DNA from: Candidatus Falkowbacteria bacterium
Lineage (GTDB): Bacteria; Patescibacteriota; Patescibacteriia; UBA11705; JABHMO01
Reading direction: 5' to 3'
NCBI GenBank assembly: GCA_018693855.1
Contig: JABHMO010000043.1
Location: forward strand, 4,450 to 68,449
DNA length: 64,000 bases
Positions 3,234-50,015 of this stretch are shown here, in pieces. The notes beneath the pieces were generated by a model. That model saw only the letters and a list, made by a program, of their open reading frames with translations. It searched no databases and was not told where the DNA came from. Position 1 is the first letter of the stretch, and the number at the start of each line of letters is the position of its first letter. The translations under genes were made by a program, and so were the position numbers.

Positions 3234-3320
3234 GAGTGAAGTGAATTGGAGTAAATCGAGGTAAATCGAAGTGAATCGGAGTAAATCGAGGTGAATCGAA
3301 GTAAAATGCAGTAAATCAAT
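3234..3320. repeat. Tandem decamer array (TCGRRGTRAA x ~8), family R10, locus 1
   Basis: gtgaa ttggagtaaa tcgaggtaaa tcgaagtgaa tcggagtaaa tcgaggtgaa tcgaagtaaa read directly. The same decamer array recurs at 20452-20518, 27771-27840, 52461-52548 and 60126-60186, always in the same + strand orientation. Confidence 0.8.
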
Positions 3321-3384
3321 ATTTTTAAAATTGAAAAGACCCGGAGCATGAGAGCTCGGGCCTTGTTGAAGTTAGAAAAAAGAA

Positions 3385-6300
3385 CTAGTCAATTTGAACT
3401 GGTCGACCGCCTTCGACGCAGGCCTCCACAGTGACAGAGACACCGTCAACAGTGCAGACAGGGATCGAGATGGCAGTACAATCATACCATTGTGGGTCAG
3501 GAGGTCCAGGCGCTTGCGCTTGAGATGCGCCGACGAAGACCGTTCGGCCTTGAATCCCCTGAGCATTTACAATTACGGTGAAACAGCCGTCTTGATCCAG
3601 CGGATTGTTCCAGTCGGACGCCCAGCCTCCACTACTCGAGCCCCAACCGAGCTGACCATAATCAGTCGGATTAAGACCACTATAACAGCAGTACACTTCG
3701 TGGAGATCTTCGACGTAGGTTTCACAACCATCACTGGCCGTACCTTGATCTTGATAACCCGGAATACAGGCATCGATTTGGCACTGACCATCAACACATA
3801 ACGTTTGACTGACCTGAGGCAGATTCCCGCAGTTATTCCCGCAAGCACCACAGTTCAGTACGTCATCTTCAAAGTTGGTGTCCTCGTCGACGAAACCATC
3901 GCAGTCATTATCCAGCTCATCGCAGAGTTCATTGCCTCCACGAGTCTGCCAGCAATTGTACTCGCACCCTTCAGTCTCCGGATCGATATTATGCCAACCC
4001 GAGTCACAGGAATACGAGCACTGACTGTTCACACACGACGCTGTAGCGTTGATGCCCGAACAGACGTCACCACAACCGCCACAGTTGTCTGGGTCGATTT
4101 CCAGGTTAAAGTCCTCATCGGTGAGACCGTCGCAATCGTCGTCTTCGCCGTTGCAGAGTTCGGAATCTAGCGGTTCTACCGCATCGAAACAGTCGCCCCA
4201 ATGGTTGCCGACGCATAGCCGCGATCCAGCCAAACAAATACCGATACCGTCTTGAGCGATCGGTCCGCAAGAGTCCGGATCGATCACCCCATTCGGGTTG
4301 CATTCACATCCTTCGTCCACTTGCCCATCGCAATCGTTGTCCAGTCCGTCACACATATTGACTTCGTCCGGTTGGCTATAACTACTACCTCCCGGCATAG
4401 TCGTGCAAACGGTCAAGTTAGACGGAGCGCACTCGATAAGACCATCTTCGCAGACGCCTTTACCTGTACAGGGTGCACCAACGTGAAAACCTTCATCGAT
4501 CTGACCATCGCAGTCATCGTCGGCGTAGTCGCATTTCTCGACAGCACCTGGATTTGCCCACGGAGCCAGATCACGACAGTCGCCATCGCAGACGCGATAG
4601 CCATCTTCATCGTAGTCCGCTTCGTTCTCAGGAACGATACCATCGCAGTCATCGTCCAGCCCGTTGCAGAGTTCCTGCTCCAGACCATTATAAGCGCCGA
4701 TGCACTCGGTCCACTGGTTGTTGACACAACGAATCTCTCCGAGTTCACAGATACCTTCGTCAGTGCCACACGGTAAGATCATGTCGTTTTGACAATTACA
4801 GTCTTCATCGAGTAATCCGTCGCAATCATTATCCAGCCCGTCTCCGAGCCCCTCTCCGCAGAGTTCAATGCTCGAGGGGAAATAGTCACTCCCATCCGGC
4901 AAGACACTGCATTGCCGTTCAGTTTGACTAGCACATTCGATCATGCCTTCGATATCACTGCACACTCCAACGCCCCAACACGGCTGACCGATAGCGTAAT
5001 CTTCGTCGATCGCGCCATCACAGTCGTTATCCAGACTGTCGCAGAGTTCCTGCGTGCCATCGTATTCACTGGCACCGACATCACTGCTACAGCGAATGGT
5101 CTGCGCGTCAGCGCATTCATAAACACCGTTACCGCACTCGCCACGACCGTTACACGGATCACCGATCAGAAAATCCTCGTCGATCTCACCGTCGCAATCA
5201 TCGTCGAGCCCGTTACAGGATTCGATCCCCACTTGCTGGCTACTGCCACCTGGATCAGTGCTGCAACGCGTATCATCGAGGTTTTCACACTCGATCACGC
5301 CTTGTCCGCAGACACCAACACCGTCGCAGATATTGCCAACGAAGTAGTCTTCATCGATTTGTCCATCGCAATCGTTGTCAAGTCCGTCGCAGGTTTCGCT
5401 TTGCCCGTCGTAAGACGAACCCCGCGGACTGGTACTGCAACGAGATCCATTGACTCCGTCGCATTCCCAGACACCGTCGCTACACTGGCCAATGCCAGCG
5501 CAAGCGATCCCCACATTGAAATCCTCATCGACGACGTCATCGCAATCGTTATCCACTCCGTCACAAAGTTCCTGCGTGCCGTCGTAGGACGACCCACCGA
5601 TATCGCTGCTGCAACGAGCGGACTCTGCATCTGCGCATTCGAGAAATCCGACTCCGCATTGTCCGACACCTTCACAGGCATCGCCGACACGGTAGTCTTC
5701 ATCGATCTCGCCGTCACAGTCGTCATCGAATCCATTGCAGAGTTCGTTCTCACTCTGGTCCTGACTGCCACCCGAATCGGTACTGCATCGCGTCGAAATC
5801 GAACTATCACACTCGATCTGACCCGTCCCGCAAGAACCTTCACCGATGCAGCTCACGCCGATATTGAAAATCTCATCGATGCTGCCGTCGCAATCGTTGT
5901 CCAGACCATCGCAAAGCTCGGACGAAGCACTGTAACTGGAACCTTCAGGATTAGTGCTACAACGAGCGCCTCCGAAGTCATTACACTCCCAGACACCGTC
6001 GCTGCACTCCCCGACTCCGTCGCAATGGTTGCCGACATTGAAATCCTCGTCGATCTCACCATCACAATCGTTATCCAGGCCGTCACACGTTTCAGACAAA
6101 CCTTCATAAGACGACCCGTTCTGATCCGTACTGCAACGTGTTTCGGTTTCGCTAGCGCACTCGATGGTTCCAAGTCCGCACTGACCCACACCCTCGCAGG
6201 TGTCGCCGATACGAAAATCCTCGTCAATCTCGCCGTCGCAGTCGTTATCCAGACCATCGCAGAGTTCCTCGGAACTCTCGTCATCAGGGCCACCTGGATA

Positions 6301-7722
6301 CGTATTGCAGGTCGAAGCCGATTCGCTCACACAAACGATCTCACCAGCCGAGCATACACCCAGCTGCGGACAAGAGTCGCCCACATTGAAATCTTCGTCA
6401 GTCAAACCGTCGCAGTCGTTGTCCAGGTTGTCACAAATTTCGGTCTCGGCCTCGTAGGCTGTACCACCGATATCAGTCGAACAGCGCGTGGAATCTTCGT
6501 CCTCGCACTCGAGCACGCCAATCCCGCATTCTCCGACTCCGTCGCAGGACAAGCCCACTCCGAAATCTTCATCTGCTTCACCGTCGCAATCGTCATCGAT
6601 ACCGTTGCAGATCTCTTCACTACTCTGGTCAGCACTGCTGCCTGGCGAAGTGGAGCAAACCCACAATAATTGGTTCTCTGCGCATTCCCAGACTCCCTGT
6701 CCACAAGCACCAACCACCGGACAGGGTTGTCCAATGATCACGCCCGGAAAAATGTTCTGATCAAGTTCATCGATCTCGCCGTCACAGTCGTTGTCCAATC
6801 CGTCGCAAAACTCCAGACGTCCAACATATTGACTGCCAAACGGATCAATATCACAAATACGACCGCCGTTGTCAGTGCATTCCCACTTGCCAACACTGGA
6901 GTTACAGGTACCGAAGGTACCCTGACACGGATAGCCGATCTCAAAGTCCTCATCGATCATGCCGTCACAATCGTTATCCAGATTGTCACAGGTCTCGTCA
7001 GTGGGCAGGATCTCATCGCAATCAGACCAAACACCATCTTCACAGGTCTGTTGACCGCGTTGACATTCGCCTTGTGCATCTTCATCGATACTGCCACAGT
7101 AACGAGCCGTACCATCACTGCATTCGCAATCTTCATCGAACTCGCCGTCACAGTCGTCGTCGTCCATATCGCAGGAGGTTTCACGACCGTACTCATCGAG
7201 ATGCATCTGGTCGATCACGCAAGCATACTCGCAACCCGGAATTTCCGGGTCGTAATCGTACCAGTTATCCATACACTCATACTGACAGGTACCATCGACG
7301 CATGAAACGCTGGAGTGCTCCAGATCTTCACAAGCGCTATTACACGCCCCGCAGTGCTCAACATTGGTACTCAGATTGAAATTCTCGTCAACCTGACCGT
7401 CGCAATCATCATCGAGCCCGTTACAATACTGTTCGAACTCCAACCCCAAACATTGGGATTCGGAGTGATCAACTGCATCGTAATCACCCAGAAGTTCATA
7501 TCGACAGAACTGACCAGCGCCACTCTCGTAGCACAGATAGCCTGCCGGGCATTGAGCTTGCGGTCCGCAAGGGATCACGCACTCACCATAGACACAGACC
7601 CATCCCTGGGCTGTACATGACTGCTCGCAAGGCGAGCTGTTGGAGTTGCTGGACTTGTTCCAGTCACAGCCACTTGTTGACAGAACGGAAGCCAAAAGGA
7701 AACAGAGAATCAGACGTCGCAT
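3385..7722 (-). CDS. Giant secreted lipoprotein with ~20 Cys-rich CDGxDNDCDGxxDE (MopE-type putative metal-binding) repeats; GC-rich
   Basis: ATG at 7722 is preceded by AAGGAGA (SD). The signal peptide MRRLILCFLLASVLSTSGC carries a lipobox. Repeated CDGLDNDCDGxIDEDFxxGxxC..GxC..GxxEC modules follow. GC is ~58% against a ~35% backbone. The + strand ORFs inside it are antisense artefacts. Confidence 0.75.
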   Translation of the reverse strand: MRRLILCFLLASVLSTSGCDWNKSSNSNSSPCEQSCTAQGWVCVYGECVIPCGPQAQCPAGYLCYESGAGQFCRYELLGDYDAVDHSESQCLGLEFEQYCNGLDDDCDGQVDENFNLSTNVEHCGACNSACEDLEHSSVSCVDGTCQYECMDNWYDYDPEIPGCEYACVIDQMHLDEYGRETSCDMDDDDCDGEFDEDCECSDGTARYCGSIDEDAQGECQRGQQTCEDGVWSDCDEILPTDETCDNLDNDCDGMIDEDFEIGYPCQGTFGTCNSSVGKWECTDNGGRICDIDPFGSQYVGRLEFCDGLDNDCDGEIDELDQNIFPGVIIGQPCPVVGACGQGVWECAENQLLWVCSTSPGSSADQSSEEICNGIDDDCDGEADEDFGVGLSCDGVGECGIGVLECEDEDSTRCSTDIGGTAYEAETEICDNLDNDCDGLTDEDFNVGDSCPQLGVCSAGEIVCVSESASTCNTYPGGPDDESSEELCDGLDNDCDGEIDEDFRIGDTCEGVGQCGLGTIECASETETRCSTDQNGSSYEGLSETCDGLDNDCDGEIDEDFNVGNHCDGVGECSDGVWECNDFGGARCSTNPEGSSYSASSELCDGLDNDCDGSIDEIFNIGVSCIGEGSCGTGQIECDSSISTRCSTDSGGSQDQSENELCNGFDDDCDGEIDEDYRVGDACEGVGQCGVGFLECADAESARCSSDIGGSSYDGTQELCDGVDNDCDDVVDEDFNVGIACAGIGQCSDGVWECDGVNGSRCSTSPRGSSYDGQSETCDGLDNDCDGQIDEDYFVGNICDGVGVCGQGVIECENLDDTRCSTDPGGSSQQVGIESCNGLDDDCDGEIDEDFLIGDPCNGRGECGNGVYECADAQTIRCSSDVGASEYDGTQELCDSLDNDCDGAIDEDYAIGQPCWGVGVCSDIEGMIECASQTERQCSVLPDGSDYFPSSIELCGEGLGDGLDNDCDGLLDEDCNCQNDMILPCGTDEGICELGEIRCVNNQWTECIGAYNGLEQELCNGLDDDCDGIVPENEADYDEDGYRVCDGDCRDLAPWANPGAVEKCDYADDDCDGQIDEGFHVGAPCTGKGVCEDGLIECAPSNLTVCTTMPGGSSYSQPDEVNMCDGLDNDCDGQVDEGCECNPNGVIDPDSCGPIAQDGIGICLAGSRLCVGNHWGDCFDAVEPLDSELCNGEDDDCDGLTDEDFNLEIDPDNCGGCGDVCSGINATASCVNSQCSYSCDSGWHNIDPETEGCEYNCWQTRGGNELCDELDNDCDGFVDEDTNFEDDVLNCGACGNNCGNLPQVSQTLCVDGQCQIDACIPGYQDQGTASDGCETYVEDLHEVYCCYSGLNPTDYGQLGWGSSSGGWASDWNNPLDQDGCFTVIVNAQGIQGRTVFVGASQAQAPGPPDPQWYDCTAISIPVCTVDGVSVTVEACVEGGRPVQID

Positions 7723-7954
7723 GGTATTTTCTCCTTGGTTAGACGTCACACAAAAATCAAGATTTTGCCCCGCCATGGCGGGGCTGACAGAATTGTCAAA
7801 GTCCTATGTAGAACATTATAGATTAGCTTATTTTAAGGAAATTGTCAAGGGGAAATCACGAAACGCGGATCGCAGAACTCAGATCGTAAAACTCAAATTG
7901 ACAATTAAAACGGCCAGCAATAAAAAACAGCTAAATTTAGACAATTATTTAAAA

Positions 7955-7990
7955 ACAAAGGACCTGAACAAATGTTCGTTCAGGTCCTTG
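7955..7990. terminator. Bidirectional rho-independent terminator hairpin (AAGGACCTGAAC...GTTCAGGTCCTT)
   Basis: A perfect 12-bp inverted repeat with T-rich tracts on both sides, lying between the 3' end of the 8009-9451 gene and the promoter of the 3385-7722 gene. Confidence 0.55.
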
Positions 7991-8008
7991 TAATTCAGTA
8001 GCAAAAAG

Positions 8009-9451
8009 CTAGAAGCAAGCGTAAGGTACGGTTGCACGACGTTTCGTCGTCCCCTCGAGTCCATCAATGGTGTCAACCGTCACTTCGGGGTTACAGGTCA
8101 CCGTTAGCAACGCGGTGTATGACGTGCTGTTGAAATGGAACTCGTTCGAACTCCAACCACAGACACCTTCGTAACTCAGGAAGAATGCTTGACCGCAGTC
8201 AACTCGAGTTTCGTCACCGTTCCGCCCGCCCCACCAGTAGATGGCTTGCTGTCCTCCCGGACAACCAGAGAACATGCACCATACACCATCAGGGTCATAG
8301 GGCAACTCGTCGACAGCATAGTCTCCGAGATTGTCCTCATCACCATCGGGCTGACTATGGTTGAAACACATGGTCTCATCGCGGTACTCACCGCAACCAT
8401 ACCCACCACAGGACTCGACATGGTAGGTGCAATACCCCAGCTCGCAAACGCCCTCGAGATGGATTAAGCGATCCCGATCGTTCTCGCAGATCACGACGTC
8501 CGCCTGACACCGGTGATTGTCTTGGCACGGACGACAGAAATCCTCACTACACCAACGATATGTATCCTCGGGGCAGAACTGATTGCAGGTTCCTTCGACA
8601 GGCTCCGCATTTGAGCCGTCCAAACAGATCCGCTGCTCTTGCGTGCAAACTATCTCTCCCTCCTCGTCTTCCTGCTCGGTTTCATCGTAACTGTCGAGGT
8701 CGATGTCACCTTCATCGGACTGAACACACTGACCGTCGTAACAGCCTAACATACCGCAATCCTCAAGGTAAAGCTGACAACGGCCGGTTCCGTGCCCCTC
8801 GACATATTCGCATTGAGCGTTGTCGGGGTGGGTAAAAATGCGATCTCCCGACTGGCAATCGGCGATGTTCTCGCACTGCGAATTGGACGTACATGTCCAG
8901 CAATCCGCGATCTGATCATGACGACAAGCGCCGTACGCATCGCAATAGTCGCGAGTGCAAGGATCGAGGTCCGGGTCACAAATACAGACGTTCGGCTCAG
9001 CATCCGGCTCCGATTCGGTAGCGTCCGTGTCGGTATCGCCTTCTTCGCAACGCGAATCATAGACGATATGACACTGCCCCGTGTTACTACAAACTGCAAG
9101 CTGACAGTCTCCAACTTCCAGGTGATCGAGGCAATACTGCGACGTCTCACACGGAATTCCTGTCGCCTGCTCGTTGTCGGACTGCTCAGCCGTATCCACG
9201 GTGTCAGTGTCACCGCCGTAAACGGTGACACACTGATTGCGGATACAAGCCATTCCGTTCCTACACTGCTCGTCATCGGTGCATTCCTGGCTCGGCACAT
9301 CCTGAGTCTCAGTTTCACTGACGCTCTCGGTACGGGGATTTCCCCAGCCGGAATCGTCGGTGTCGCCGGAAAGAGTAGCCGTGCCGTTGCAAGCGGACAC
9401 GAACAGAGTAATGGCGATAATCGCCAGTAACAAGGAATGAATCTTCCTCAT
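8009..9451 (-). CDS. Cys-rich secreted lipoprotein (Myxococcota-type cysteine repeats); GC-rich
   Basis: ATG at 9451 with a GGAGG SD. Signal peptide plus lipobox MRKIHSLLLAIIAITLFVSAC. Repeated CxxxxQCxNGxCxxNQC-like modules. Confidence 0.65.
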   Translation of the reverse strand: MRKIHSLLLAIIAITLFVSACNGTATLSGDTDDSGWGNPRTESVSETETQDVPSQECTDDEQCRNGMACIRNQCVTVYGGDTDTVDTAEQSDNEQATGIPCETSQYCLDHLEVGDCQLAVCSNTGQCHIVYDSRCEEGDTDTDATESEPDAEPNVCICDPDLDPCTRDYCDAYGACRHDQIADCWTCTSNSQCENIADCQSGDRIFTHPDNAQCEYVEGHGTGRCQLYLEDCGMLGCYDGQCVQSDEGDIDLDSYDETEQEDEEGEIVCTQEQRICLDGSNAEPVEGTCNQFCPEDTYRWCSEDFCRPCQDNHRCQADVVICENDRDRLIHLEGVCELGYCTYHVESCGGYGCGEYRDETMCFNHSQPDGDEDNLGDYAVDELPYDPDGVWCMFSGCPGGQQAIYWWGGRNGDETRVDCGQAFFLSYEGVCGWSSNEFHFNSTSYTALLTVTCNPEVTVDTIDGLEGTTKRRATVPYACF

Positions 9452-9518
9452 AGGGGCCTCCATCTTCAAGGGTTTCGGAAATGAAAAGGTACGAAAAATG
9501 ACACTAGGATAACATCTT

Positions 9519-9547
9519 ATTATAGCAAAAAAGACGATCTTTGTCAA
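9519..9547 (-). promoter_or_regulatory. Consensus sigma70-type promoter (TTGACA-17-TATAAT) for the 8009-9451 gene
   Basis: Minus-strand reading gives TTGACAaagatcgtcttttttgcTATAAT with an exact 17-bp spacer. Confidence 0.55.
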
Positions 9548-9553
9548 CCTCTG

Positions 9554-9583
9554 TCACGTATCACTTAACACGTAGCACGTAAC
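9554..9583. repeat. Heptad tandem array (CACGTAR), family R7
   Basis: cacgtatcacttaacacgtagcacgtaac. The same ACGTARC heptads recur at 13443-13468, 19832-19866, 30655-30690 (inverted), 41466-41497, 43403-43440 and 58055-58088, usually just upstream of a -35 element. Confidence 0.7.
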
Positions 9584-9713
9584 AGAACACAAAAATCATT
9601 AATTTAAGCTAAATTTAGACAAAACTTTATAAAATTTATTTAAAATGAAGAGCCCCGAACGATGTTGTTCGGAGCTCGACTGTTGAGGTTGAGAGTTAAA
9701 TCGTAATGACGAC

Positions 9714-10538
9714 CTAATACTGGCAGGTGTAGTTCAGTTCCACATCTTCGAGGCCGTGGCCCTGATAATGCGTTGTGAATCCACCGTCGCACTGAATCGT
9801 CAACTCGTCACCGTGATCCCACACGCTGGGATTGCAACCGGAGACGGATGAACAGTTGACCTGGTTATAGCGGAACCATGCGGTTCCGTATGGGACTTGC
9901 CCCCACGGACAGATGTCCCGACTCAGGTCGAACGTGATCCACTCACCACATTCGTGGTATTCCCCTTCGCTGCCGCCGTTCGTGCCTCCGGAATACCAGA
10001 GCGATACGAGATAGTTGGCGCGACAACCGGTCCAACGACAGGTAATCGTCTCGCCGGTCGGATCTGGGTCGTTGTCGTTGTCGTTGTCCGTGGTGTCGGT
10101 ATCACCGTTGTTCACCGGTTCGCCGATCAATTCGCATTCGCCTTGCATGGCCGCTACGAGATTGTTATCGCCGTCGTAATACGAGTCCACCGTTCGTGTC
10201 GGAACACAGCCCCAATGGCCATCCAACCCGTCAAGCGGTACATAGGAATTGCGGCGACAACTGTCTTCGGAAGAGAGGACGTCCATGAAACGGTTGGTCA
10301 CCGTGCGAATTTCGCACATGTTGGCACAACGTTTCATAGCGTAACCTTCTTCCGCGGATCGTATCTCGTCATTGATGCAAGTCATCGGCTGCGGACATCC
10401 CGCATCGGTGATGCATTGCTGCACCTCCCAATAGTCGATGTTCTGCGTCCCCGTGATCGTGGCATCATCCTGGCAGGCGATGGTGGTCAGAGCGATGGCC
10501 AACACGACCAACGTAACGAACAGATTCCTTTTCTTCAT
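9714..10538 (-). CDS. Cys-rich secreted lipoprotein; GC-rich
   Basis: MKKRNLFVTLVVLAIALTTIAC carries a lipobox. A GAGGAG SD precedes the ATG. 274 aa, Cys-rich. Confidence 0.6.
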   Translation of the reverse strand: MKKRNLFVTLVVLAIALTTIACQDDATITGTQNIDYWEVQQCITDAGCPQPMTCINDEIRSAEEGYAMKRCANMCEIRTVTNRFMDVLSSEDSCRRNSYVPLDGLDGHWGCVPTRTVDSYYDGDNNLVAAMQGECELIGEPVNNGDTDTTDNDNDNDPDPTGETITCRWTGCRANYLVSLWYSGGTNGGSEGEYHECGEWITFDLSRDICPWGQVPYGTAWFRYNQVNCSSVSGCNPSVWDHGDELTIQCDGGFTTHYQGHGLEDVELNYTCQY

Positions 10539-10684
10539 GATTTTTCTCCTCAGGTGAAAAGGTGGTCAATTGTGAAACGAAACAAGTATCCTCATCCGTT
10601 TTATCATAAATTATTTATAATAGAACAGATGAGGAGGGGATGAAAAGCTCCATCCCCACCATTGTGAAAAAAACAGTACTTGAA

Positions 10685-11329
10685 CTACCGATAGTGAACG
10701 TTGCGCTTGCCGTCCAGGTAGCCCATGCCACCGAGAGTGCCCAACGTCGTACCACCAACCACGACCACTCCGATGATCGTCCAGAACCACCAAGTCTCGT
10801 ACCACTCGGTTTTGAGTTCCTCGGTCTGCCGGTCAATGGCATTGGCGACGTTATCGGTTTCCAGAATCACCGACAGGTTGGTGGTGTTGTCGATGTCGAC
10901 ACGATCTCCGCTACGACTGGACGCGCGACGTCTCGGGACTTCGCTCTGAGCCAGTCGATGACGCTGTCGATTCTCGCGATCCATCTGCCGCTCAGCTCGA
11001 TCGATTGCCTTCAACAGCTGGAATTCACGCTGCTTGAGCTGGCGATACTGCTGCAAACGATTAAGCGCCCGGCGAGTCCGATGCTGTCGCTTCATCTCAT
11101 CGATCTGACCTTGTGTAACCGCGATTTCGGTGAGCAACATTTGATGAACCTGCTCAAGAGACATCGGCTGCGCAGCGGCCGGTTGCCGTTGTTGCGCCTG
11201 CGCTCGAGCTGCGTTTCCACCGACGATCACTTCCGAAGCAGTGTTATCATCCGCCATAGAGACGGAGATCAAGACCGGATTCATTGCCATTACCACGCAC
11301 AGCATGGCCAAGATGATGGATTTCATCAT
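10685..11329 (-). CDS. Secreted Gln/Arg-rich coiled-coil protein with a C-terminal TM anchor; GC-rich
   Basis: Signal peptide MMKSIILAMLCVVMA, a long QR-rich helix, and a C-terminal WWFWTIIGVVVVGG TM segment. AAGGAGG SD. Confidence 0.5.
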   Translation of the reverse strand: MMKSIILAMLCVVMAMNPVLISVSMADDNTASEVIVGGNAARAQAQQRQPAAAQPMSLEQVHQMLLTEIAVTQGQIDEMKRQHRTRRALNRLQQYRQLKQREFQLLKAIDRAERQMDRENRQRHRLAQSEVPRRRASSRSGDRVDIDNTTNLSVILETDNVANAIDRQTEELKTEWYETWWFWTIIGVVVVGGTTLGTLGGMGYLDGKRNVHYR

Positions 11330-11487
11330 GTCGTTTTCCTCCTTAACAAGGTATGGGGGTCAATTGAAAAGAAACATACAAATCCTCATCTGATTCATCA
11401 TGAAATACATCATAATAAATCGGATAAGGAGGAGTGGAACGTTGTTCCACTCCATCCTGGTTACATGTTCAGTACCAAATTCTCGAT

Positions 11488-12438
11488 CTACTCACGGCCG
11501 AAGCGGTACGTCTTATCGACGGTGCGAGTCCTTCGGTACACGGTGTGATCATCGCCCTCGTTTTCTTTGTGCTCGGGATCGATGATGTCTTCGACCTCAC
11601 CCTCTTCCTTCATGTACGAACCGGCTTCCGGGTTGTCGACATTAAAATTCACGTTGGACGTGTCGTTCCAATACACGAGCGGAGCCGGTGGCTCATCGTA
11701 GAGTCCTTCGGTGGGCTGCAGGTTTGCGGTCGACTGGGCGGGCTGACGCGGTTGAACCGACGAAATATCCTGGCCGTTACCTTGGCTGGCGGGGACATAG
11801 TAGCTCGGATCCTCCGGCAACTGATTGAGCCGACGCTGGACGAGCAGCTGACGCTGCGCGATCTGCAACTGACGCTGCCTCTGCGCATTCTGAGCTTCCT
11901 GACGCGCGAGCGCGTCATCGGAAACGATGGGAATCGCGACGCCCGGTCGGCCGTGACGTACGACGACAGCACTGGGCTGCTCGGCAGGCTTCTCGGAGTC
12001 GGGCTTGGCGGCTTGCTGATTGCGGTTACCGCCATAAAGACGACTGAGCCGCTTGTAGTTGGCGCGATCGGACATCTGCTGCTGAATAACTTCAAGTCGA
12101 TTCCGCACGGCCTGGACCTCGGGACACGTCAGATCGGTATTCTCCTGCTCGGCCTCATCGGAATAAACCTTGATGAGCCTGAGAGCCTGCAACTTACGCC
12201 GCACGGAGAGCACTTCATTGTCGGTCAACTCGTCCTTCATGGCCTCGATCTGATCCTTGGACATGCGGGGATACATGAGCATCCGCAAATCCTTGATCTC
12301 TTCGGCGTCGAGCGATTCGACACACGAAACGGGATCAGGGTCGATGGGGTCGTAACCGGACTGCGCGGCGGCCGGGGTGGCGGTCAAAAACACGATGGCC
12401 AGCATGGCCAGCAAAAACAGGTTGCGAACTTTCTTCAT
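11488..12438 (-). CDS. Secreted Gln/Arg-rich protein; GC-rich
   Basis: ATG at 12438 with an AAGGAG SD. Signal peptide MKKVRNLFLLAMLAIVFLTATPAAAQ. QRQRQLQIAQRQLLVQRR helix. Confidence 0.5.
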   Translation of the reverse strand: MKKVRNLFLLAMLAIVFLTATPAAAQSGYDPIDPDPVSCVESLDAEEIKDLRMLMYPRMSKDQIEAMKDELTDNEVLSVRRKLQALRLIKVYSDEAEQENTDLTCPEVQAVRNRLEVIQQQMSDRANYKRLSRLYGGNRNQQAAKPDSEKPAEQPSAVVVRHGRPGVAIPIVSDDALARQEAQNAQRQRQLQIAQRQLLVQRRLNQLPEDPSYYVPASQGNGQDISSVQPRQPAQSTANLQPTEGLYDEPPAPLVYWNDTSNVNFNVDNPEAGSYMKEEGEVEDIIDPEHKENEGDDHTVYRRTRTVDKTYRFGRE

Positions 12439-12608
12439 GGCAAATCTCCTTTGTGTTGCCAAGTTAACGAAATACTGAACTGATTGAAAGAGAACATTCT
12501 CCTCACCGGAATAGTTAAATAACTGCTCTGGTGAGGGCACAACGGTGGTTGTGCCTGTTTTCTACATCTTGCGTAAAAAACTAGTTTTTGTCAAGTCCCG
12601 GACACGGA

Positions 12609-13367
12609 TCATCTCGAACAAGATCGCCCGAGTTGTCTCTCCATCGCGCAAAGCCTCTGCTGTTCGCGATGATTATCCAGGTAGGTTTGTCCCAGGTCCT
12701 CTAACGTTGGTCCATGAAGGACTGAACGAGTTCGAGGTTGAGACCTTTGTCGTGGCCGAGTCCGCTGTTTTTCCAGCATGTCGGCGATTGATGGGCCTCG
12801 CAACTTGCGCTGGAGACGCTCGTTATCGGATTCGAGGCGACGTTGTTCGGCTTCCGCTAGATCACGACCCTCTACAGCATCTTCAAGCAATTCCTCCAGT
12901 TCCCTGACTCGCCTTGACAGTCGAGTAACCTCCGTTTGGCTTTCACCTAACTGGATAACCAACTTGCCTGCTCTAGCTGCTTGTCTTTTCAGTTCCTCCA
13001 GGTCAGATGGACCGGCAGCACCAGACAAACCACTTGCATGACTAGCGATCATGCGACGAGCTTTCTCGATCTCCTCTCTTAGTGGAACAACTTCTCTTTC
13101 CAGATCAGAGTATTTCACTTGGAGTTGCTCGAGTGCCTCACTTGAGTCACTCATATCACGAAGCTTTTCTTCAAGCTCCACGATCCGACGACGTAATTTG
13201 GCGTCTGCCTCCTTAATCCTCTCTTGCTCCTCGTCAGTGACGATACCATCTGCCAGAGCCACTTTGACCTCATCAGCCAATTCCGGTTTCTGTGCTGGAT
13301 TTGAAAAGAAAATCCAAACTCCAACAATTCCAGACAAAACAATAAGAAGCGCGATGAAATATTTCAT
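12609..13367 (-). CDS. N-terminally membrane-anchored coiled-coil protein; GC-rich
   Basis: TM segment MKYFIALLIVLSGIVGVWIFF, then ~200 aa of heptad-rich sequence. AAGGAGA SD. Confidence 0.5.
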   Translation of the reverse strand: MKYFIALLIVLSGIVGVWIFFSNPAQKPELADEVKVALADGIVTDEEQERIKEADAKLRRRIVELEEKLRDMSDSSEALEQLQVKYSDLEREVVPLREEIEKARRMIASHASGLSGAAGPSDLEELKRQAARAGKLVIQLGESQTEVTRLSRRVRELEELLEDAVEGRDLAEAEQRRLESDNERLQRKLRGPSIADMLEKQRTRPRQRSQPRTRSVLHGPTLEDLGQTYLDNHREQQRLCAMERQLGRSCSR

Positions 13368-13405
13368 GATCTGTCTCCTTGAGATGATCGAATTAGTAAC
13401 ATACT

Positions 13406-13434
13406 ATTTTATCATGTTAGAAATAATTTGTCAA
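13406..13434 (-). promoter_or_regulatory. Promoter TTGACAAATTATTTC-N-TAAAAT (17-bp spacer) for the 12609-13367 gene
   Basis: The 15-nt -35 region TTGACAAATTATTTC is identical to that of the promoter at 14964-14992. Confidence 0.5.
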
Positions 13435-13548
13435 TAGCGAATCACGTAACACATATCACGCCTACCTATCAACAAGCAATCAACGCATAACAAAATATGA
13501 CAAACAAGACAAAATGGCTAAAATAAGACAAAACCCGCAAGGATGACC

Positions 13549-13929
13549 TCACGGGTTGATGATGTTTTGTAGAAATGTTATTAGGGAAAAGCCAAATTTG
13601 TTTTGGAGACCGGATTGGGCCAATGCGCCAAGGAGAATTGAAGCAAAGATTAACAACACAATTACTCTAGTTGAAGCATCTTTGTATTTAATTACTTCCT
13701 TGACTGCTAATTGCTCCAGTTCTTCTTTGAAATATCGCCTTAAATATGCGATTTTCAGTTCTACCTTCAATTGCTCTATTTTCTTTTGGTGCGCTCTTTT
13801 CTGCAATGCGCTTTTACCTTGCCCATTGCTATCATGGTCTTTGCTCAAAACCACAATTTGAAAAGCTATATCATGCAAATCACCAACAACCAAATCGCCA
13901 TTAATCCCAAGTTCTTCGTAAAGATCCAT
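13549..13929 (-). CDS. Small C-tail-anchored protein (126 aa); lower GC than its neighbours
   Basis: GGAGG SD plus ATG at 13929. C-terminal TM segment VIVLLIFASILLGALA. A perfect 13-bp hairpin (AGAGCCGCGATGC/GCATCGCGGCTCT) at 13955-13985 separates it from the upstream gene. Confidence 0.4.
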   Translation of the reverse strand: MDLYEELGINGDLVVGDLHDIAFQIVVLSKDHDSNGQGKSALQKRAHQKKIEQLKVELKIAYLRRYFKEELEQLAVKEVIKYKDASTRVIVLLIFASILLGALAQSGLQNKFGFSLITFLQNIINP

Positions 13930-14002
13930 GGTTAACCTCCTTGCCAATTTGCAAGAAGAGCCGCGATGCGAGGCATCGCGGCTCTTGTAAATAAAGAATA
14001 AA

Positions 14003-14893
14003 TCAGAACGCTGTTTTGATCCACTGCAACAGACTCACACCCAGTTTCCAGATGGCCAGCTCTTCGAGTGCGAACATGATTACCAGACCTAATCCCGTCA
14101 GCCCCACCCACTCACCGATACTCGTCCGCTGCTTGACCGGCTTCTGGTTCTGAGCCTCGGTCAGATCCCTTTCCAGGTCAGCTATCTGATCACGAGCTTC
14201 ACCCAAATCCTGACGCAATTCGTCCTCAAGCTTGAGCTGGGCTTCGGCTGCTTTTCGCTGAAGCCTTGCGTCTTCTTCAGCCTTACGCTGAGCTTCGACT
14301 TGATCGTCCTCGTCCTTCTTGCGAGCGTCGATCTTGGCCGTTAGTTTGAAATAAAGCTGGTGAACCTGAACACGCGCAAACTTGAGTTGCTTCCCGACCA
14401 AGAGAAGCTTCTGACGTCCGCTCTGTGCATACAGACTGTCAGTCGCGACCAGCTCTTCGAAGATCTCCAACTCATCCTGCGTGGCGACATAGAAGGTAAA
14501 TCCGTCATCGCCATTGGGTGTCTGCTGACCGAAGAAAAGCCGATACAACCAACCTTCAGTAAAAATCTGGAAAGTATGATTTACCTGCAGTGGAAAATGT
14601 TCCTGAGCCGACGACGTCACCTCGGACTGCGCCTGCGCGATAACAGCCTCTTGCTTGGCGACAACCGGAGCTTCCTCACGGGTAGTCGTCACGACGGGCT
14701 CGGTCTCTTCTGGCTTCTCCTCGGGTTCTTCATCGGATTCACCTCCTCCTCCGAAAAGAGCCACCGAATCATCCGTAGTTGGCGGTGCTGCAGTCAACTC
14801 CGAACCATCGCTACCGGCGTCTGCGTCGTGGATGTCTCCACCCATTGCACTCCTACCGTCTTCTGTATCCGTGTCAAAAGGACTTCCAGCCAT
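14003..14893 (-). CDS. Acidic coiled-coil protein with a C-terminal TM anchor; GC-rich
   Basis: 296 aa with a D/E-rich N-terminal region, a KAEEDARLQRKAAEAQLK coiled coil, and a C-terminal TM segment GLTGLGLVIMFALEELAIW. GGGAG SD. Confidence 0.5.
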   Translation of the reverse strand: MAGSPFDTDTEDGRSAMGGDIHDADAGSDGSELTAAPPTTDDSVALFGGGGESDEEPEEKPEETEPVVTTTREEAPVVAKQEAVIAQAQSEVTSSAQEHFPLQVNHTFQIFTEGWLYRLFFGQQTPNGDDGFTFYVATQDELEIFEELVATDSLYAQSGRQKLLLVGKQLKFARVQVHQLYFKLTAKIDARKKDEDDQVEAQRKAEEDARLQRKAAEAQLKLEDELRQDLGEARDQIADLERDLTEAQNQKPVKQRTSIGEWVGLTGLGLVIMFALEELAIWKLGVSLLQWIKTAF

Positions 14894-14963
14894 AGTACTT
14901 CTCCCTTTTCTCCCCTTTTTGGGGTAAGAACGTGAACTTGTGAAACAACAAAACTAACATAAT

Positions 14964-14992
14964 ATGTTATCATATAGGAAATAATTTGTCAA
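14964..14992 (-). promoter_or_regulatory. Promoter TTGACAAATTATTTC-N-TAACAT (17-bp spacer) for the 14003-14893 gene
   Basis: Read on the minus strand. It is the twin of the promoter at 13406-13434. Confidence 0.5.
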
Positions 14993-15096
14993 TGATTGGG
15001 CGCGGAACGCGGATCGTAAATTTTGAAGATCAGTAAAAACAATCGCAAGAAAAAAACGACTAAAACAGCCGTCTTTTTATGTAAAATTAGAAGAAA

Positions 15097-19669: not shown

Positions 19670-20061
19670 AAGTTATGAGATTAAATGATGTATACATAGA
19701 TAAGATGAACCAATCTAAATAAAAACCATAGATCCCTCCAGCAAGGTCGGGATGACAAATTTTTATTAAATATTGATACTTTATCTAAGTTTATTATACA
19801 ATATTTTTATAATTTTAACAAAAAGCTTATCACGTAACACGTAGCACATAGCACGTAACATAAATCGCATTCAAACTATACTTAAAATAAAAAACAGCCG
19901 ATTTCTCGGCTGGATTTTTTAACTACTAGTTAGTTAGCTCTAAAGAGACAAAAGAAAGGAGGTGTTGAAAGAACATATATCTCAAAGAGCCAACTAATTA
20001 GTAGTTAGATTTATACATTTAGGTTGTCCTGCGAATCCGGTGGGATTCACAGGTGGTTGTT

Positions 20062-21116: not shown

Positions 21117-21506
21117 GGGGATGCTGGGCTTCGACAAGCGATTTTATTCTATTTTGTGCAGAATGAGCTCTTAGCTGCTCATAAAACCGTTAAGAAAATT
21201 TTAAGTGCAAATACACTTTCAAGCAAAGTAAAATCATTGTTCGCAATGCCAAGCTTTGCGCCTGTTGCAGTTTAATTTTTAACTCAACCATCGGTCCTCA
21301 GATACTCACTATGAGATCACTGGTGTAAACTTAGCGAGTGTAGATTGTAGAAGTTCTCTGGTCTACAATTGAAATCATAATTAGAGATCGAGATTTAACT
21401 TTTTTGTCTTGCCTTTAGGTTAAATTTCTAAAAATCAGGCTCGACTAATTCTGTAGAATCAACATAGTTGATTGTTTGGACGCGGGTTCAACTCCCGCCA
21501 TCTCCA
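21117..21506 (+). ncRNA. ssrA: tmRNA (ssrA)
   Basis: 5' GGGGAUGCUGGGCUUCGACAAGCG pairs with 3' GGACGCGGGUUCAACUCCCGCCAUCUCCA to form a 7-bp acceptor stem with a G3:U wobble, the alanine identity element. The T-arm is GGGUUCAACUCCC. An internal tag ORF ends ...AMPSFAPVAV-TAA at 21273-21275. ~390 nt. Confidence 0.8.
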
Positions 21507-21618
21507 CTTCTCGATTCGCTCCACTCACTCGAAGCCTACGGCCTCTAGGAGGGCGAGAGATTATTACCAAAACTATAAATCTGTACAATCTGTATTCAGA
21601 TCTGTACATCCGTACCCA

Positions 21619-23112: not shown

Positions 23113-23180
23113 TGGCGGACCGGACGAGACTCGAACTCGCGATCTCCTGCGTGACAGGCAGGTGTGTTAACCAACTACAC
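23104..23180 (-). tRNA. tRNA-Asp (GTC)
   Basis: The reverse complement is GGATCGGTGGTGTAGTTGGTTAACACACCTGCCTGTCACGCAGGAGATCGCGAGTTCGAGTCTCGTCCGGTCCGCCA. This gives a cloverleaf with anticodon loop CTGTCAC (GUC), T-loop GTTCGAGTC, and an encoded CCA. Confidence 0.85.
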
Positions 23181-23316
23181 CACCGATCCAGATATATACA
23201 TCTAAAAAATGTAATTAGATTATAAACGATTACTAACTTTAAGTCAATAGTTTATTAACAAAACAAAAGGTCTGACTTATGAGGTCAAACCTTTAAATGA
23301 CTGTCTCTGCACAATA

Positions 23317-25990: not shown

Positions 25991-25999
25991 AATCACAGT

Positions 26000-26085
26000 T
26001 AATCGGTTAATCAGTTGACCCGTTAACCAGTTAATCCGTTAACCAGTTAACCCGTCAACCAGTTAATCCTAACTATTACAACATT
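26000..26085. repeat. Tandem 16-mer repeats (CCGTTAACCAGTTAAT x ~4), GTTAACC family
   Basis: ccgttaaccagttaatccgttaaccagttaacccgtcaaccagttaatcc. An inverted partner lies at 26478-26530 on the other side of the four-helix-bundle gene. A related copy lies at 22165-22255. Confidence 0.75.
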
Positions 26086-26089
26086 AATT

Positions 26090-30636: not shown

Positions 30637-30828
30637 TTAATCACAAATTTGATTTATGTTACGTGCTATGCGATACGTGTTACGTGAATATTATACCATT
30701 TTTTTAACCTTTATTAAACTTTTTATACACAAAAAGCCTCTAAGCTTTACAATCCTTTCAAATAGTGATACTATCCCCCTGATGACAAAAAACGTTCTAT
30801 TCATAAATTAAACTTTAACCTAAACAAT

Positions 30829-41364: not shown

Positions 41365-41519
41365 AAGAAAATTCAATACTTTTTGACAAAGTATTTTTGT
41401 TAAATTTATGCTTTAATTATACCATAAAAGGGACTCTGCGTCCCTAGTAGTTATCAACATTTTTAGCACGTAACACGTAGCACGTATCACATAGCAGAAA
41501 TTGTAAAACAAATATTAGA

Positions 41520-43316: not shown

Positions 43317-43591
43317 ATAATTAAAAAATATCTGCTTAGTTTCTAGCTATTCACATTATAACAATTTTTTAATATTGATTGAATGGGTTTATCCACATTT
43401 TCACGTAGCACGTAACACGTAACGCATAACATGTAACAATAATCGCAAAAATCACATTATTCACACCCAAACGTCCCTAATTACGAGTTGCTAATTACAA
43501 TTTACTATGCCCCTTGCCAAATATTTAATATCATGCTATCATTGTGGACATATTATAAACAATAAATTTATTCGAAATTTACTTGATCTGT

Positions 43592-43870: not shown

Positions 43871-44148
43871 CTACTTCAATATAAAAGGTTCCTCCATTTT
43901 AATTTACTAAAGAGGAACTTTTTTGATATACTAATAGCGCGATGCTAATCCACTAATACATGCGAATGATGCGAAAATTGCTGAGATGCTAATTTGCGAA
44001 TTACGCGAATACTACAAATAGTTACTATTCGCGTAATTCGTAAATTAGCATGGCGAAGCGTTCGCCCGCCTGCAACGCTGTAGCACTGCGGGCAGGCAGC
44101 ATCCTTACATTATTCGCAAAATCCGCATATTCGCATCGGTTTATATAT

Positions 44149-49842: not shown

Positions 49843-49870
49843 GTTAAATGTTTTTTATGTTTGTCGTAGA

Positions 49871-49965
49871 AGTGTAGAAGTAACAAGGCTACATGAGGCT
49901 ATACGAGGCTAATCTATGAGGCCTCATTAATGGCCCCGTTTAGCCTCGTTTAGCCCCATAAAAAA
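49871..49965. repeat. Tandem CGAGGCTA-type repeats (partner locus 50745-50800; related copy at 22326-22380)
   Basis: ggctacatgaggctatacgaggctaatctatgaggcc...gtttagcctcgtttagcccc, containing inverted copies. Confidence 0.6.
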
Positions 49966-50015
49966 GTGCCCTACATAAATGATATTGTAGAACACTTTTT
50001 TTATTCATTCAACTG

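Follow-up and report, generated by a model that had tools for sequence, protein, structure and literature searches.

A lineage-specific, structured two-hairpin RNA module in the intergenic spacers of one secreted-protein operon in Falkowbacteria

The window, that is, the whole 64-kb stretch of DNA that was analysed, carries three adjacent minus-strand genes for secreted proteins (starts at 12438, 11329 and 10538), with one copy of a two-hairpin module 5' of each. This element is a lineage-specific structured RNA module situated at the gene junctions of a single operon; it is real, conserved and known from this operon only. As to its role, we propose, at a probability of roughly 0.4, that it may act constitutively to stabilise, process or insulate the mRNA, as fixed punctuation and not as a sensor. 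The order of parts is shared by the copies, comprising a GC-rich hairpin (H1), an abutting hairpin (H2), a U-rich tail and a strong SD (Table 1), with the hairpins ending 37-50 nt 5' of the SD and a U-rich, mostly unpaired stretch of ~45 nt leading from H2 to the SD. The base of H2, CCUYAYC/GRUGAGG, is a 7-8 bp helix conserved in sequence (UCCUCAUC/GAUGAGGA) and is followed by a C/A mismatch at position 9 in five of six copies; in leader 1, the 23-nt arms of H2 are 87% complementary.

Table 1. Positions of the genes, signals and leader parts in the window
Feature	Positions	Strand	Description
Three leader-served genes	9714..12438	(-)	
Gene 11488-12438	11488..12438	(-)	316 aa
Gene 10685-11329	10685..11329	(-)	214 aa, membrane anchor at C-terminus
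Gene 9714-10538	9714..10538	(-)	274 aa, Cys-rich lipoprotein-type signal
Strong promoter	13406..13434	(-)	TTGACA-N17-TAAAAT; drives upstream gene 12609-13367
Leader 3 -35 hexamer	12589..12594	(-)	TTGACA; just 3' of the upstream gene's stop codon
Leader 3 -10-like hexamer	12566..12571	(-)	CAAGAT; TAATAT in orthologue
Leader 3 H1	12536..12555	(-)	GGCACAACcaccGTTGTGCC; 8 bp, GGCACAAC/GTTGTGCC
Leader 3 H2	12502..12535	(-)	13 bp, two 1x1 internal loops; base CUCACC/GGUGAG
Leader 3 U-rich tail	12452..12501	(-)	TTTCAAT at 12489-12483
Leader 3 SD	12446..12451	(-)	AAGGAG; 7 nt 5' of ATG 12438
Leader 2 H1	11431..11453	(-)	GGAGTGGAACaacGTTCCACTCC; 10 bp, GGAGTGGAAC/GTTCCACTCC
Leader 2 H2	11383..11430	(-)	20 bp and one C/A mismatch; base UCCUUAUC/GAUGAGGA
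Leader 2 U-rich tail	11345..11382	(-)	TTTCAATTGACCC at 11369-11357
Leader 2 SD	11338..11344	(-)	AAGGAGG; 5' of ATG 11329
Leader 1 H1	10636..10657	(-)	GGGGATGGAgcttTTCATCCCC; 9 bp, GGGGATGGA/TTCATCCCC
Leader 1 H2	10589..10635	(-)	TCCTCATC...GATGAGGA; 21 bp and one mismatch; base UCCUCAUC/GAUGAGGA
Leader 1 U-rich tail	10552..10588	(-)	box TTTCACAATTGACCACC at 10577-10561
Leader 1 SD	10546..10551	(-)	GAGGAG; 5' of ATG 10538
Canonical intrinsic terminator	9650..9677	(-)	closes the unit 3' of the gene starting at 10538; T-tract score 2.65

An earlier note on this DNA had pointed out these leaders, and the features that it described are present on the minus strand where it had placed them; its interpretation is partly supported, in that a conserved structured element at the RNA level, limited to the non-coding spacers, is borne out by the two-hairpin fold common to six copies. 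Several particulars require amendment: 1) the stem that it read as CCTCATC in leaders 1 and 2 has CCTTATC as its 5' arm in leader 2, giving a G-U pair; 2) what it called an AT-rich loop is, in the folds of leaders 1 and 2, part of a hairpin of 21-23 bp that takes up the whole segment; 3) the upstream GC-rich hairpin, assigned to leaders 2 and 3 only, is present in both, and leader 1 has an H1 as well; 4) the TTTCAAT box, considered common to the leaders, occurs in leader 3, with leader 1 carrying TTTCACAAT instead. The TTCAATTGA box was not enriched in the window (61 matches vs. 48 +/- 9 expected), and we rejected this palindrome as a protein-binding site for that reason. The coding sequences were rightly described as dissimilar, the three proteins having no mutual similarity outside their signal peptides, which by inspection are of the Sec type in all three. 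No Pfam domains were found in these proteins, and searches with all three marked them as orphans (at most 2 protein clusters among 5.8 billion); they are likely surface or host-interaction factors.

The three spacers fold far better than their shuffles (z -5.5, -4.9 and -4.1). Since other upstream regions in the window are equally structured (z down to -8.3; those folds that we inspected were unrelated palindromes and repeat arrays), structure alone does not set the three leaders apart, but homology and conservation do. In leave-one-family-out nhmmer searches of the 64-kb window, leader 1 recovered leader 2 (E=1.2e-13) and leader 2 recovered leader 1 (E=1.8e-9), while leader 3 was undetectable by sequence alone (E 1.4). 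With a covariance model built without leader 3, leader 3 was the top non-training match in the window at 21.6 bits (a rough E of ~0.002), and the background maximum was 15.2 bits. The claim that all three leaders align thus holds for leaders 1 and 2, which are clearly homologous, whereas leader 3 matches them in architecture only.

The only relative that we found is a second Falkowbacteria lineage (L011; 57% protein identity), in which the gene order is identical and all three leaders are present (L1o, L2o and L3o denote its leaders 1, 2 and 3). In the individual folds, two abutting hairpins are seen in every one of the six copies, which are the three paralogues of either lineage. Between orthologues, H1 differs by two fully compensatory changes from A-U to G-C and by two that are wobble-compatible: pair 8 of leader 2 has gone from A-U to G-C, the leader 3 orthologue (GGCGTAAC/GTTGCGCC) has one compensatory change (A-U to G-C) and one from C-G to U-G, and the leader 1 orthologue is a 10-bp stem with one G-C to G-U change. 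H2 of leader 3 is identical in the orthologue except for a 1-nt loop insertion, and that of leader 2 is identical at 45 of 46 positions, the single change being G-U to G-C; in leader 1, the base of H2 was kept and the upper 14 bp were rewritten yet are still paired, so that a 21-bp stem is retained. As for the tails, CAATTGA(A)CCACC of leader 1 is kept in the orthologue, while the leader 3 box reads TTTCTAAA there, with TTTCAAT found further downstream. In a structure-based alignment, which leans towards structure because it was built from individual folds, 94.7% of cells were paired vs. 40-57% in slid controls, and 14 pairs had double changes vs. 2-5. In an unbiased MAFFT alignment, RNAalifold still reported compensatory double changes in 5 of 14 H2 pairs, a count resting on six sequences because only two lineages exist. 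The sense strand was also more stable than the antisense by 5-8 kcal/mol in leaders 1 and 2 and both of their orthologues (four of six copies). A helix closing the region from 5' of H1 to the tail was predicted singly, with 5 bp in leader 1, L1o and L2o and 10 bp in leader 2; we dropped it because its partners differ, the leader 2 helix is missing from L2o and chance alone would yield 5-bp matches.

Conservation within the locus is highest in the spacers, where identities are 0.75-1.0 vs. about 0.6-0.65 in coding sequence. The near-identical leader 2 sits in a 300-nt block (11685-11386) that is conserved at synonymous sites too (third-position identity of 0.83 vs. 0.57-0.70 elsewhere), and its near-identity may therefore reflect recombination rather than selection.

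Against Rfam 15, the module matched no family, the whole window giving only tmRNA and one tRNA above the gathering threshold, and a relaxed scan of 10400-12750 returned spurious miRNA/snoRNA matches only (at most 22 bits vs. thresholds of 35-100). Scanning with our own model revealed no further copies in the 64-kb window besides the three, and none in additional contigs of both lineages, ~30 kb in all. A strict DNA pattern scan gave 17 matches in GTDB species genomes, 32 in JGI metagenomes and 0 in viral contigs, among which the model scored those in L041/L042, from the lineage of the window, and in L054/L057, from that of L011, and no others, the rest attaining at most 32 bits; as this strict pattern recovers 4 of the 6 known copies, diverged copies could have escaped. 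Ten contigs with identical proteins (L001-L010) are the window's own sequence and add no information. Other matches were discarded, including ten metagenome matches from one related sample series, all below 20 bits with the model (one, L038, is a CRISPR array with the repeat GTTTCAATCCTCACCGG...), a chance match in a coding region (L056) and an ordinary terminator of another organism (L058). The 'regulon' envisaged in the earlier note thus reduces to this one operon in the pattern scans. With three copies in 64 kb and none in the further contigs, dispersed palindromes of the REP/BIME or MITE type were also rejected.

No terminator was found between the upstream gene 12609-13367 and leader 3, and the terminator at the far end of the unit is 93% conserved in the orthologue. 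The minus-strand transcription unit would start at the promoter at 13434, take in a second, probably weak promoter at 12594-12566 and finish with the terminator at 9677-9650. The three leaders are internal junctions of a single transcription unit, rather than independently regulated promoter leaders. The TTGACA of leader 3 probably belongs to a weak sigma-70 promoter: the block TTGACAAAAAC(T/C)AGTTTTTTAC is kept in L011, and the arrangement TTGACA-N17-CAAGAT, which ends 10 nt 5' of H1, has its equal in geometry in the orthologue (TTGACA-N16-TAATAT). This geometry would place the transcript start 3-5 nt 5' of H1. The window copy, with its -10-like hexamer, fell under the threshold of the promoter scanner; all other island promoters have a perfect TTGACA, and the scan recognised no promoter in leaders 1 and 2. 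The neighbouring island genes starting at 14893, 13367, 9451 and 7776 have canonical promoters of their own, three of the four also have a canonical upstream terminator, and the regions 5' of them are unstructured (z +0.24 to -1.16). The module is restricted to junctions devoid of a promoter/terminator pair, the monocistronic neighbours being without it.

The earlier note had offered a thermosensor or a riboswitch as the function of these leaders. An RNA thermometer of the ROSE or fourU type shares with them several 5'-leader hairpins and U-rich sequence near an AGGA-type SD, but here no SD or AUG is sequestered by a weak hairpin; neither H1 nor H2 includes the SD, whose accessibility is like that in control genes (probability of being unpaired 0.64, 0.18, 0.50, 0.58, 0.78 and 0.45 in the six leaders vs. 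0.16-0.45 in three other SD-bearing island genes). A riboswitch is at odds with two plain, unbranched hairpins whose loops and upper stems vary between copies, and blocking the 3' arm of H2 in silico yielded no consistent alternative fold and no consistent sequestering of the SD. Because the SD is unoccluded, no alternative fold or terminator U-tract is conserved and no other copies exist in the sequences searched, the thermosensor, riboswitch and regulon readings are all unsupported. We also rejected: 1) an anti-SD switch by pairing of the H2 5' arm with the SD, for which 5-9 nt are complementary in the leader 1 and 2 families and not in leader 3, and which would be ~15-20 kcal/mol less stable than H2; 2) occlusion of the SD by the U-rich tail, inconsistent across copies; and 3) integron attC sites or cassettes, as no core sites were seen at the ends of H2 by inspection, the AAC/GTT of H1 flanking only a 3-4 nt loop and being absent from leader 1, the gene order being the same in the two lineages, and no integrase-like ORF standing out in the island ORF list (10 ORFs scanned against Pfam).

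Based on this layout, we surmise that the module could work as follows. In leader 3, a transcript beginning 3-5 nt before H1 would carry a protective 5'-terminal stem-loop; the stacked helix of 30 bp at either internal junction may mark boundaries of processing or decay and protect the ends of the flanking cistrons; and at all three junctions, the helix would tie up the pyrimidine tract and keep GC-rich coding RNA from upstream from pairing with the SD and the U-rich ribosome landing zone. Each of the three secreted proteins would then be produced at its own set level, fixed and high, without signal-dependent switching. Stabilisation of mRNAs by 5'-terminal stem-loops is known from E. coli ompA, B. 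subtilis aprE and Lactobacillus slpA, the ompA 5' UTR having the layout hp1-ss1-hp2-ss2 and the leaders of slpA (S-layer) and aprE being similar. Like these, the present leaders are long, with two stable hairpins, a U-rich single strand, a free SD and an exported product, and H1 of leader 3 is predicted to sit a few nt from the transcript 5' end as in ompA. Unlike in these, there is no sequence similarity, the hairpins abut without a spacer and only one of the three copies could be at a primary 5' end, the other two being internal to a polycistronic unit; stabilisation is a proposal here.

Intercistronic hairpins are likewise known to set segmental mRNA stability in Rhodobacter puf and E. coli malEFG, and the stems of about 20 bp in T7 early mRNAs are RNase III sites. 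Our module resembles R. capsulatus puf, the malE-malF REP and the T7 early-gene sites in placing stable stem-loops between cistrons, and H2 of leaders 1 and 2, a stem of 21-23 bp interrupted by a 1x1 internal loop, is in the size class of RNase III substrates, processing again being a proposal. In all, H2 has 20-21 bp and a 1x1 loop in leaders 1 and 2, L1o and L2o, but 13 bp in leader 3 and L3o, which is short for an RNase III site and counts against the proposed role. The module further differs from REP in its three copies vs. hundreds dispersed, and from the puf, REP and T7 hairpins in that its conserved part reaches downstream to the SD, so that the element travels with the downstream gene. 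The cry3A mRNA of Bacillus thuringiensis has a STAB-SD, which resembles an SD but is situated far 5' of the start codon; single-stranded and near the 5' end, it binds the 30S subunit and stabilises the mRNA. An SD-like GAGGA (within GAUGAGGA) is conserved ~45-60 nt 5' of the true SD in all six of our copies, but pairs here with UCCUC, which is anti-SD-like, as part of a highly stable stem.

A terminator-like score for the leader 2 tail in the window counts against the proposed role. In a rival reading, H2 and its tail would be partial intrinsic terminators or attenuators, each stopping a fraction of transcripts at its junction for stepwise lower expression that an antitermination factor could modulate, which we regard as unlikely. 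The GC-rich base of H2 is indeed followed by a U-rich tail, the T-tract score of leader 2 (3.49) equals or exceeds those of three bona fide terminators of the locus (2.65-3.2), leader 1 is intermediate (1.94), and the CCTCATC...GATGAGGAAATGTTTTCAAT hairpin of the unrelated contig L058 is an obvious terminator between convergent genes. However, the proximal U-tract is unconserved (0.19 in leader 3, 0.68 in L1o, 0.76 in L2o and 0.29 in L3o), with only the leader 2 copy being terminator-like, and a conserved intrinsic terminator or attenuator was rejected on this ground. Genuine terminators of the locus are also of a different type (a single GC-rich stem of 11-14 bp with an immediate T-run), the leader 3 promoter lies 5' of the hairpins, so that an efficient terminator would silence the gene, and there is no space for a promoter between H2 and the SD.

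Among the paralogues, the H2 base has a fixed sequence, in contrast to the freely varying H1. This sequence would seem to be read by something, a point that a purely structural role leaves unexplained. What survives of the idea in the earlier note is hence a regulated leader, with the H2 base and tail serving as a binding site for a trans-acting protein or sRNA that would co-regulate the three genes (e.g. a double-stranded-RNA-binding protein or nuclease, or a CsrA-like GGA binder); we consider it rather unlikely. The near-invariance of H2 between lineages in leaders 2 and 3, loops included, is consistent with such a site, as are the GGA motifs in the H2 3' arm and the SD, ~45 nt apart. However, it comes without a candidate regulator, its GGA motif in H2 is hidden within a stem of -22 to -25 kcal/mol, leader 1 shows free divergence in the upper half of H2 and the element precedes no other gene in the window and the further contigs; neither the in silico blocking of the 3' arm nor the defining tests of the thermosensor and riboswitch versions, given above, are in its favour.

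At the DNA level, H1 could be the terminator-like end of the upstream gene and the AT-rich interior of H2 (TATTAT...) a weak promoter for the gene downstream, with the repeat as an operator or by-product, an improbable arrangement in our view. TATTAT occurs in leaders 1 and 2 and in L2o, TTTTCA-N18-TATTAT of leader 1 is at the 9/12 threshold of the promoter scan, L2o reads TTCCCA-N17-TATTAT by eye, and the complementary case of leader 3, where the promoter is external and the AT-rich extension is missing, is suggestive. In contrast, recognisable promoters of the locus all have a perfect TTGACA while these candidates match 2-4 of 6 positions at -35, threshold matches in the region do not exceed those in shuffles (11 vs. 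7.3 +/- 2.7), and both the G-U pairs and the greater stability of the sense strand favour RNA; moreover, the repeat interior pairs throughout and covaries, unlike operator half-sites, and the arm spacing varies from 19 to 31 nt.

A lack of present function, with the leaders as leftovers of an old local duplication or as decayed REP/MITE-like elements palindromic by accident, appears very unlikely: leaders 1 and 2 are clearly duplicates, the genome is rich in unrelated intergenic palindromes and short tandem repeats and the element is confined to two lineages, but the triplication predates the split of lineages with 47-57% protein identity, each of the six copies has nevertheless retained both hairpins, with compensatory changes and a conservation exceeding that of coding sequence, and the dispersed copies expected of REP/MITE were not found by model and pattern scans. 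Least probable is a uORF, leader peptide or relic of an ancestral gene start, in which the (A/G)UG of GRUGAGG would open an ORF controlling the downstream gene (MRILVSFHN and MRICMFLFN, each followed by a stop, or MRRMFSFNQ...), since, although each of the six copies keeps this frame open over 9 codons or more, the main start is overlapped by its stop (AUGA) in leader 3 and L1o, and by eye the peptides look like signal-peptide starts and GATGAGGA like the real start contexts ATGA(A/G)GAA, the start codon is paired in the most stable part of H2 without an upstream SD, frame and length are unconserved in the orthologues (9 codons to read-through, L3o running in frame into the main gene), the TTTCAAT box falls in a different frame in L1o, the alternative inner AUG is missing from L2o, and conservation is at the nucleotide level, G-U-compatible changes included.

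Should the module indeed be a stabilising or processing signal, it would explain how three proteins are made at set levels from one transcript and would furnish a compact leader part for gene expression in such organisms. The Patescibacteria/CPR are uncultured and post-transcriptional control in them is almost unexplored; the locus offers a small, delimited and evolutionarily validated RNA structure on fast-evolving orphan secreted proteins. Its genes lie in an SD-using island of 53% GC (GC3 0.54-0.72) within a genome of 35% GC whose other genes are without SDs. It is conceivable, albeit a long shot, that the module is a portable 'expression adaptor' for compositionally foreign genes: the GC-rich island genes would depend on strong SDs and, at promoter-less junctions, also on the H1-H2 clamp, whose SD-like GAUGAGGA, paired to the anti-SD-like UCCUC, would act as an insulator or as a decoy controlling the recruitment of SD-reading ribosomes. 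In that case, a surface-protein island gained by horizontal transfer would have a translation-initiation regime of its own within a CPR bacterium. The GC-rich, SD-using island within an AT-rich, SD-less genome may itself be the more valuable lead.

The minus-strand spacers before the genes starting at 10538, 11329 and 12438 (leaders 1, 2 and 3) share one architecture, comprising a GC-rich hairpin of 8-10 bp with a 3-6 nt loop (H1), a second hairpin adjoining it with zero spacer (H2, base CCUYAYC/GRUGAGG), and a U-rich stretch of ~45 nt that is mostly unpaired and leads to a strong Shine-Dalgarno (SD) site, with fold z-scores of -5.5, -4.9 and -4.1. The motifs reported in the earlier note are all found in the sequence, and the coding sequences are indeed dissimilar, the proteins being unrelated beyond their signal peptides; four details needed correction: 1) the 5' arm in leader 2 is CCTTATC, not CCTCATC, giving a G-U pair; 2) in leaders 1 and 2, the "AT-rich loop" is in fact the top of a 21-23 bp hairpin; 3) the extra GC-rich hairpin, described for leaders 2 and 3, is also present in leader 1 (GGGGATGGA/TTCATCCCC); 4) the box in leader 1 reads TTTCACAAT. 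Profile searches show leaders 1 and 2 to be genuinely homologous, a profile from one family detecting the other (E=1.2e-13 and 1.8e-9, 64 kb searched). Leader 3 was not detected by sequence-profile search alone (E 1.4, 64 kb) and is the best non-training match of a covariance model trained only on the families of leaders 1 and 2 (21.6 bits, E~0.002 by rough calibration; its orthologue 16.7 bits, background maximum 15.2); its position, before the next gene, is equivalent. GRTGAGGA in the H2 3' arms resembles the start contexts of genes in the surrounding island, ATGA(A/G)GAA, and the peptides encoded by ORFs opening there look like the N-termini of signal peptides (MRILVSF, MRICMFLF, MRSLVLV); the leaders might be derived from gene starts that were truncated.

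Comparison with L011, a contig of a second Falkowbacteria lineage carrying orthologues of all three leaders, supports the structured cis-acting RNA proposed earlier, as evidenced by compensatory changes, spacer conservation and sense-strand stability; we put the probability of a structured RNA element under selection at about 0.8. Between orthologues, H1 shows one compensatory A-U to G-C change each in leaders 2 and 3, wobble-compatible changes in leaders 1 and 3 and zero stem-disrupting changes, and in leader 1 the base of H2 is retained while the upper 14 bp are rewritten yet still pair (both lineages have 21 bp). From a plain MAFFT alignment, RNAalifold recovers H2 and shows compensation at 5 of its 14 pairs. 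In a structure-based alignment of both hairpins, which was made from individual folds and is hence biased towards structure, 94.7% of cells are paired vs. 40-57% with partners slid, and double changes occur in 14 pairs vs. 2-5; none of 500 shuffles attains the score of the real alignment. The sense strand is 5-8 kcal/mol more stable than the antisense in 4 of 6 copies, with 2-5 G-U pairs, an excess not seen for leader 3. Nowhere in the locus is conservation higher than in the spacers (identity 0.75-1.0 vs. ~0.6-0.65 for coding sequence). The near-identity of leader 2 is part of a ~300-nt block; this also takes in the final ~65 codons of the upstream 316-aa gene (11488-11700), which are conserved even at synonymous positions, with a third-position identity between the two lineages of 0.83 vs. 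0.57-0.70 elsewhere, so recombination may contribute to the near-identity; leader 2 and this C-terminal-domain block could be a recombination tract or a region of RNA-level constraint reaching into coding sequence.

The island genes starting at 14893, 13367, 9451 and 7776 each have a strong promoter of sigma-70 type, with perfect TTGACA, in front of them. Between the promoter at 13434 and the terminator at 9677-9650 lie the genes that start at 12438, 11329 and 10538; no canonical terminator interrupts this series, and what were called three "leaders" are therefore internal junctions of one transcription unit. The H1-H2 module is limited to junctions without their own promoter/terminator pair, and the leaders of the monocistronic island genes are unstructured (z +0.24 to -1.16). 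A candidate promoter (TTGACA-N16/17 and a -10-like element) in leader 3 and its orthologue has its predicted RNA start 3-5 nt before H1, placing H1 as a 5'-terminal stabiliser hairpin would be placed. From this distribution and start geometry, we tentatively surmise that H1-H2 serves as constitutive punctuation, which would protect 5' and 3' ends or mark processing sites (the 21-23 bp stems of H2 being candidate RNase III sites), lock away its own pyrimidine tract and keep GC-rich upstream coding RNA from reaching the SD and the U-rich landing zone. The closest functional analogues are the stabilising 5' leaders of ompA and S-layer type, together with intercistronic stability or RNase III hairpins. 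Punctuation leaves one point unexplained. Although H1 is free to vary, paralogues share the sequence of the H2 base, UCCUCAUC/GAUGAGGA, in which one strand is anti-SD-like and its partner SD-like; 5 of 6 copies have a C/A mismatch at position 9. This hints at sequence-specific recognition and keeps in play a model with a trans-acting factor, which we consider unlikely.

Promoters inside H2 are unlikely: the candidates match poorly, at 2-4 of 6 positions of the -35, in a locus whose real promoters all carry TTGACA without mismatch, and the scan count is not above shuffles. The earlier note's reading of a sensor controlling a regulon is not supported: a thermosensor or translational riboswitch is at odds with an SD that lies outside the hairpins and is no less accessible than in other island genes, blocking the H2 3' arm in silico gave no consistent SD-sequestering fold, and the element consists of just two simple hairpins whose tops vary. 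Nor did a covariance model find further copies in the window or ~30 kb of extra contigs of the two lineages. A conserved intrinsic terminator is rejected, the only terminator-grade U-tract being in the window's leader 2 (3.49; other leaders 0.19-1.94, real terminators of the locus 2.65-3.2). An upstream ORF from the (A/G)UG in GRUGAGG, present in all six copies, would start inside the stem, with frame and length unconserved. An operator-type DNA palindrome conflicts with an interior that pairs and covaries, variable arm spacing and G-U pairs, which favour RNA; a dispersed repeat, MITE or integron attC conflicts with the lack of other copies in the sequence searched, the lack of core sites and the fixed gene order.

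The element is new and very narrowly distributed, and is of a known kind, a cis-acting mRNA structure. The three proteins are orphans (at most 2 clusters each among 5.8 billion proteins), the sole relative found being syntenic, at 57% and 47% identity. Rfam holds nothing similar, the leaders belonging to no curated family, and species genomes totalling 596 Gb, scanned with a strict pattern, yielded 17 matches, all unrelated chance hits of at most 24 bits. Of 32 metagenome matches, the real ones come only from the two known lineages: L038 (JGI Ga0308389_1001646, 5380-5560) is a CRISPR array with a 37-nt repeat, GTTTCAATCCTCACCGGCCTTGAAAGACCGGTGCAAC, matching by chance, nine more share its sample series at <20 bits each, and another is an ordinary terminator. 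Viral contigs gave no match.

Features of the window and of the orthologous contig L011
Feature	Position	Strand	Detail
Leaders in L011	766-953, 1845-2000, 2640-2812
H2 3' arms (GRTGAGGA)	10589-10596, 11383-11390, 12501-12508
Canonical island terminators	13557-13532, 9677-9650, 7989-7958
Promoter family	7811-7849, 9510-9548, 13397-13435, 14955-14993	-	TTGACAA-N16-TA(A/T)(A/C/T)(A/C)T
TACGTG(C/T) arrays	9555-9581, 19831-19857, 41467-41486, 43402-43421, 58056-58082	-
TACGTG(C/T) array	30660-30686	+
TACGTG(C/T) single copy	13443	-
TACGTG(C/T) site in L011	3790-3825
tmRNA	21117-21509	+	131.9 bits
tRNA (one)	23116-23189	-
HN958_03885			NCBI protein identical to one from the locus, named Candidatus Falkowbacteria bacterium (Patescibacteria/CPR)

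The near-consensus promoter family carries a conserved ATGTT(A/C) 3 nt past the -10, and its 13397 and 14955 copies are 87% identical over 39 nt. Intergenic tandem heptamers TACGTG(C/T) (period 7, 2-3 units each), several just 5' of -35 hexamers, gave 8 tandem matches vs. 0 expected, spread both within the island and beyond it, and also in the orthologue; they probably make up a transcription factor binding array and suit a regulon better than the leaders do. The window is chromosomal DNA of an uncultured bacterium, with housekeeping genes such as gyrB, secE, nusG and those for ribosomal proteins L11 and L1 in it or adjoining it. Arguably the more interesting lead is the compositional and translational oddity of the island, which holds minus-strand genes for orphan proteins with signal peptides at ~53% GC (positions ~3400-15000) vs. 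~35% for the genome. The island (3385-14990) is compositionally and translationally foreign to the rest of the window: GC3 is 0.43-0.72 in 8 of 9 ORFs (0.54-0.72 in 7 of these; 0.38 in the ninth, 13549-13947) and strong SDs (AAGGAGG, AGGAG) precede 6 of 9, vs. GC3 of 0.19-0.41 in ~30 non-island genes, just one with AGGA upstream. The same 35% to 53% jump is present in the orthologous lineage, and the island is therefore old; its promoters look native. Its 1463-aa secreted protein (3385-7776, minus strand), of equal length in both lineages, has ~19 Cys-rich repeats CDGxDNDCDGxxDED (174-nt period) and a weak MopE-like copper-binding Pfam match in precomputed annotations; directly 3' of its gene, at the island edge, lie ~9 tandem copies of the 10-bp G(A/G)AGT(A/G)AATC (3238-3327). 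The spacers of this genome are unusually rich in idiosyncratic repeats. Three intergenic structures unrelated to the leaders, at 25997-26089(-), 49843-49985(-) and 43985-44049(+), comprise a run of GGTTAACNG tandem repeats of ~11 nt that folds into a long hairpin, a set of inverted arrays of GGCTAAAC/GTAGCC units (z -6.75) and, just before the gene at 44050, a perfect 24-bp hairpin. Besides the tmRNA and tRNA of the window, smpB is found nearby in the orthologous contig.
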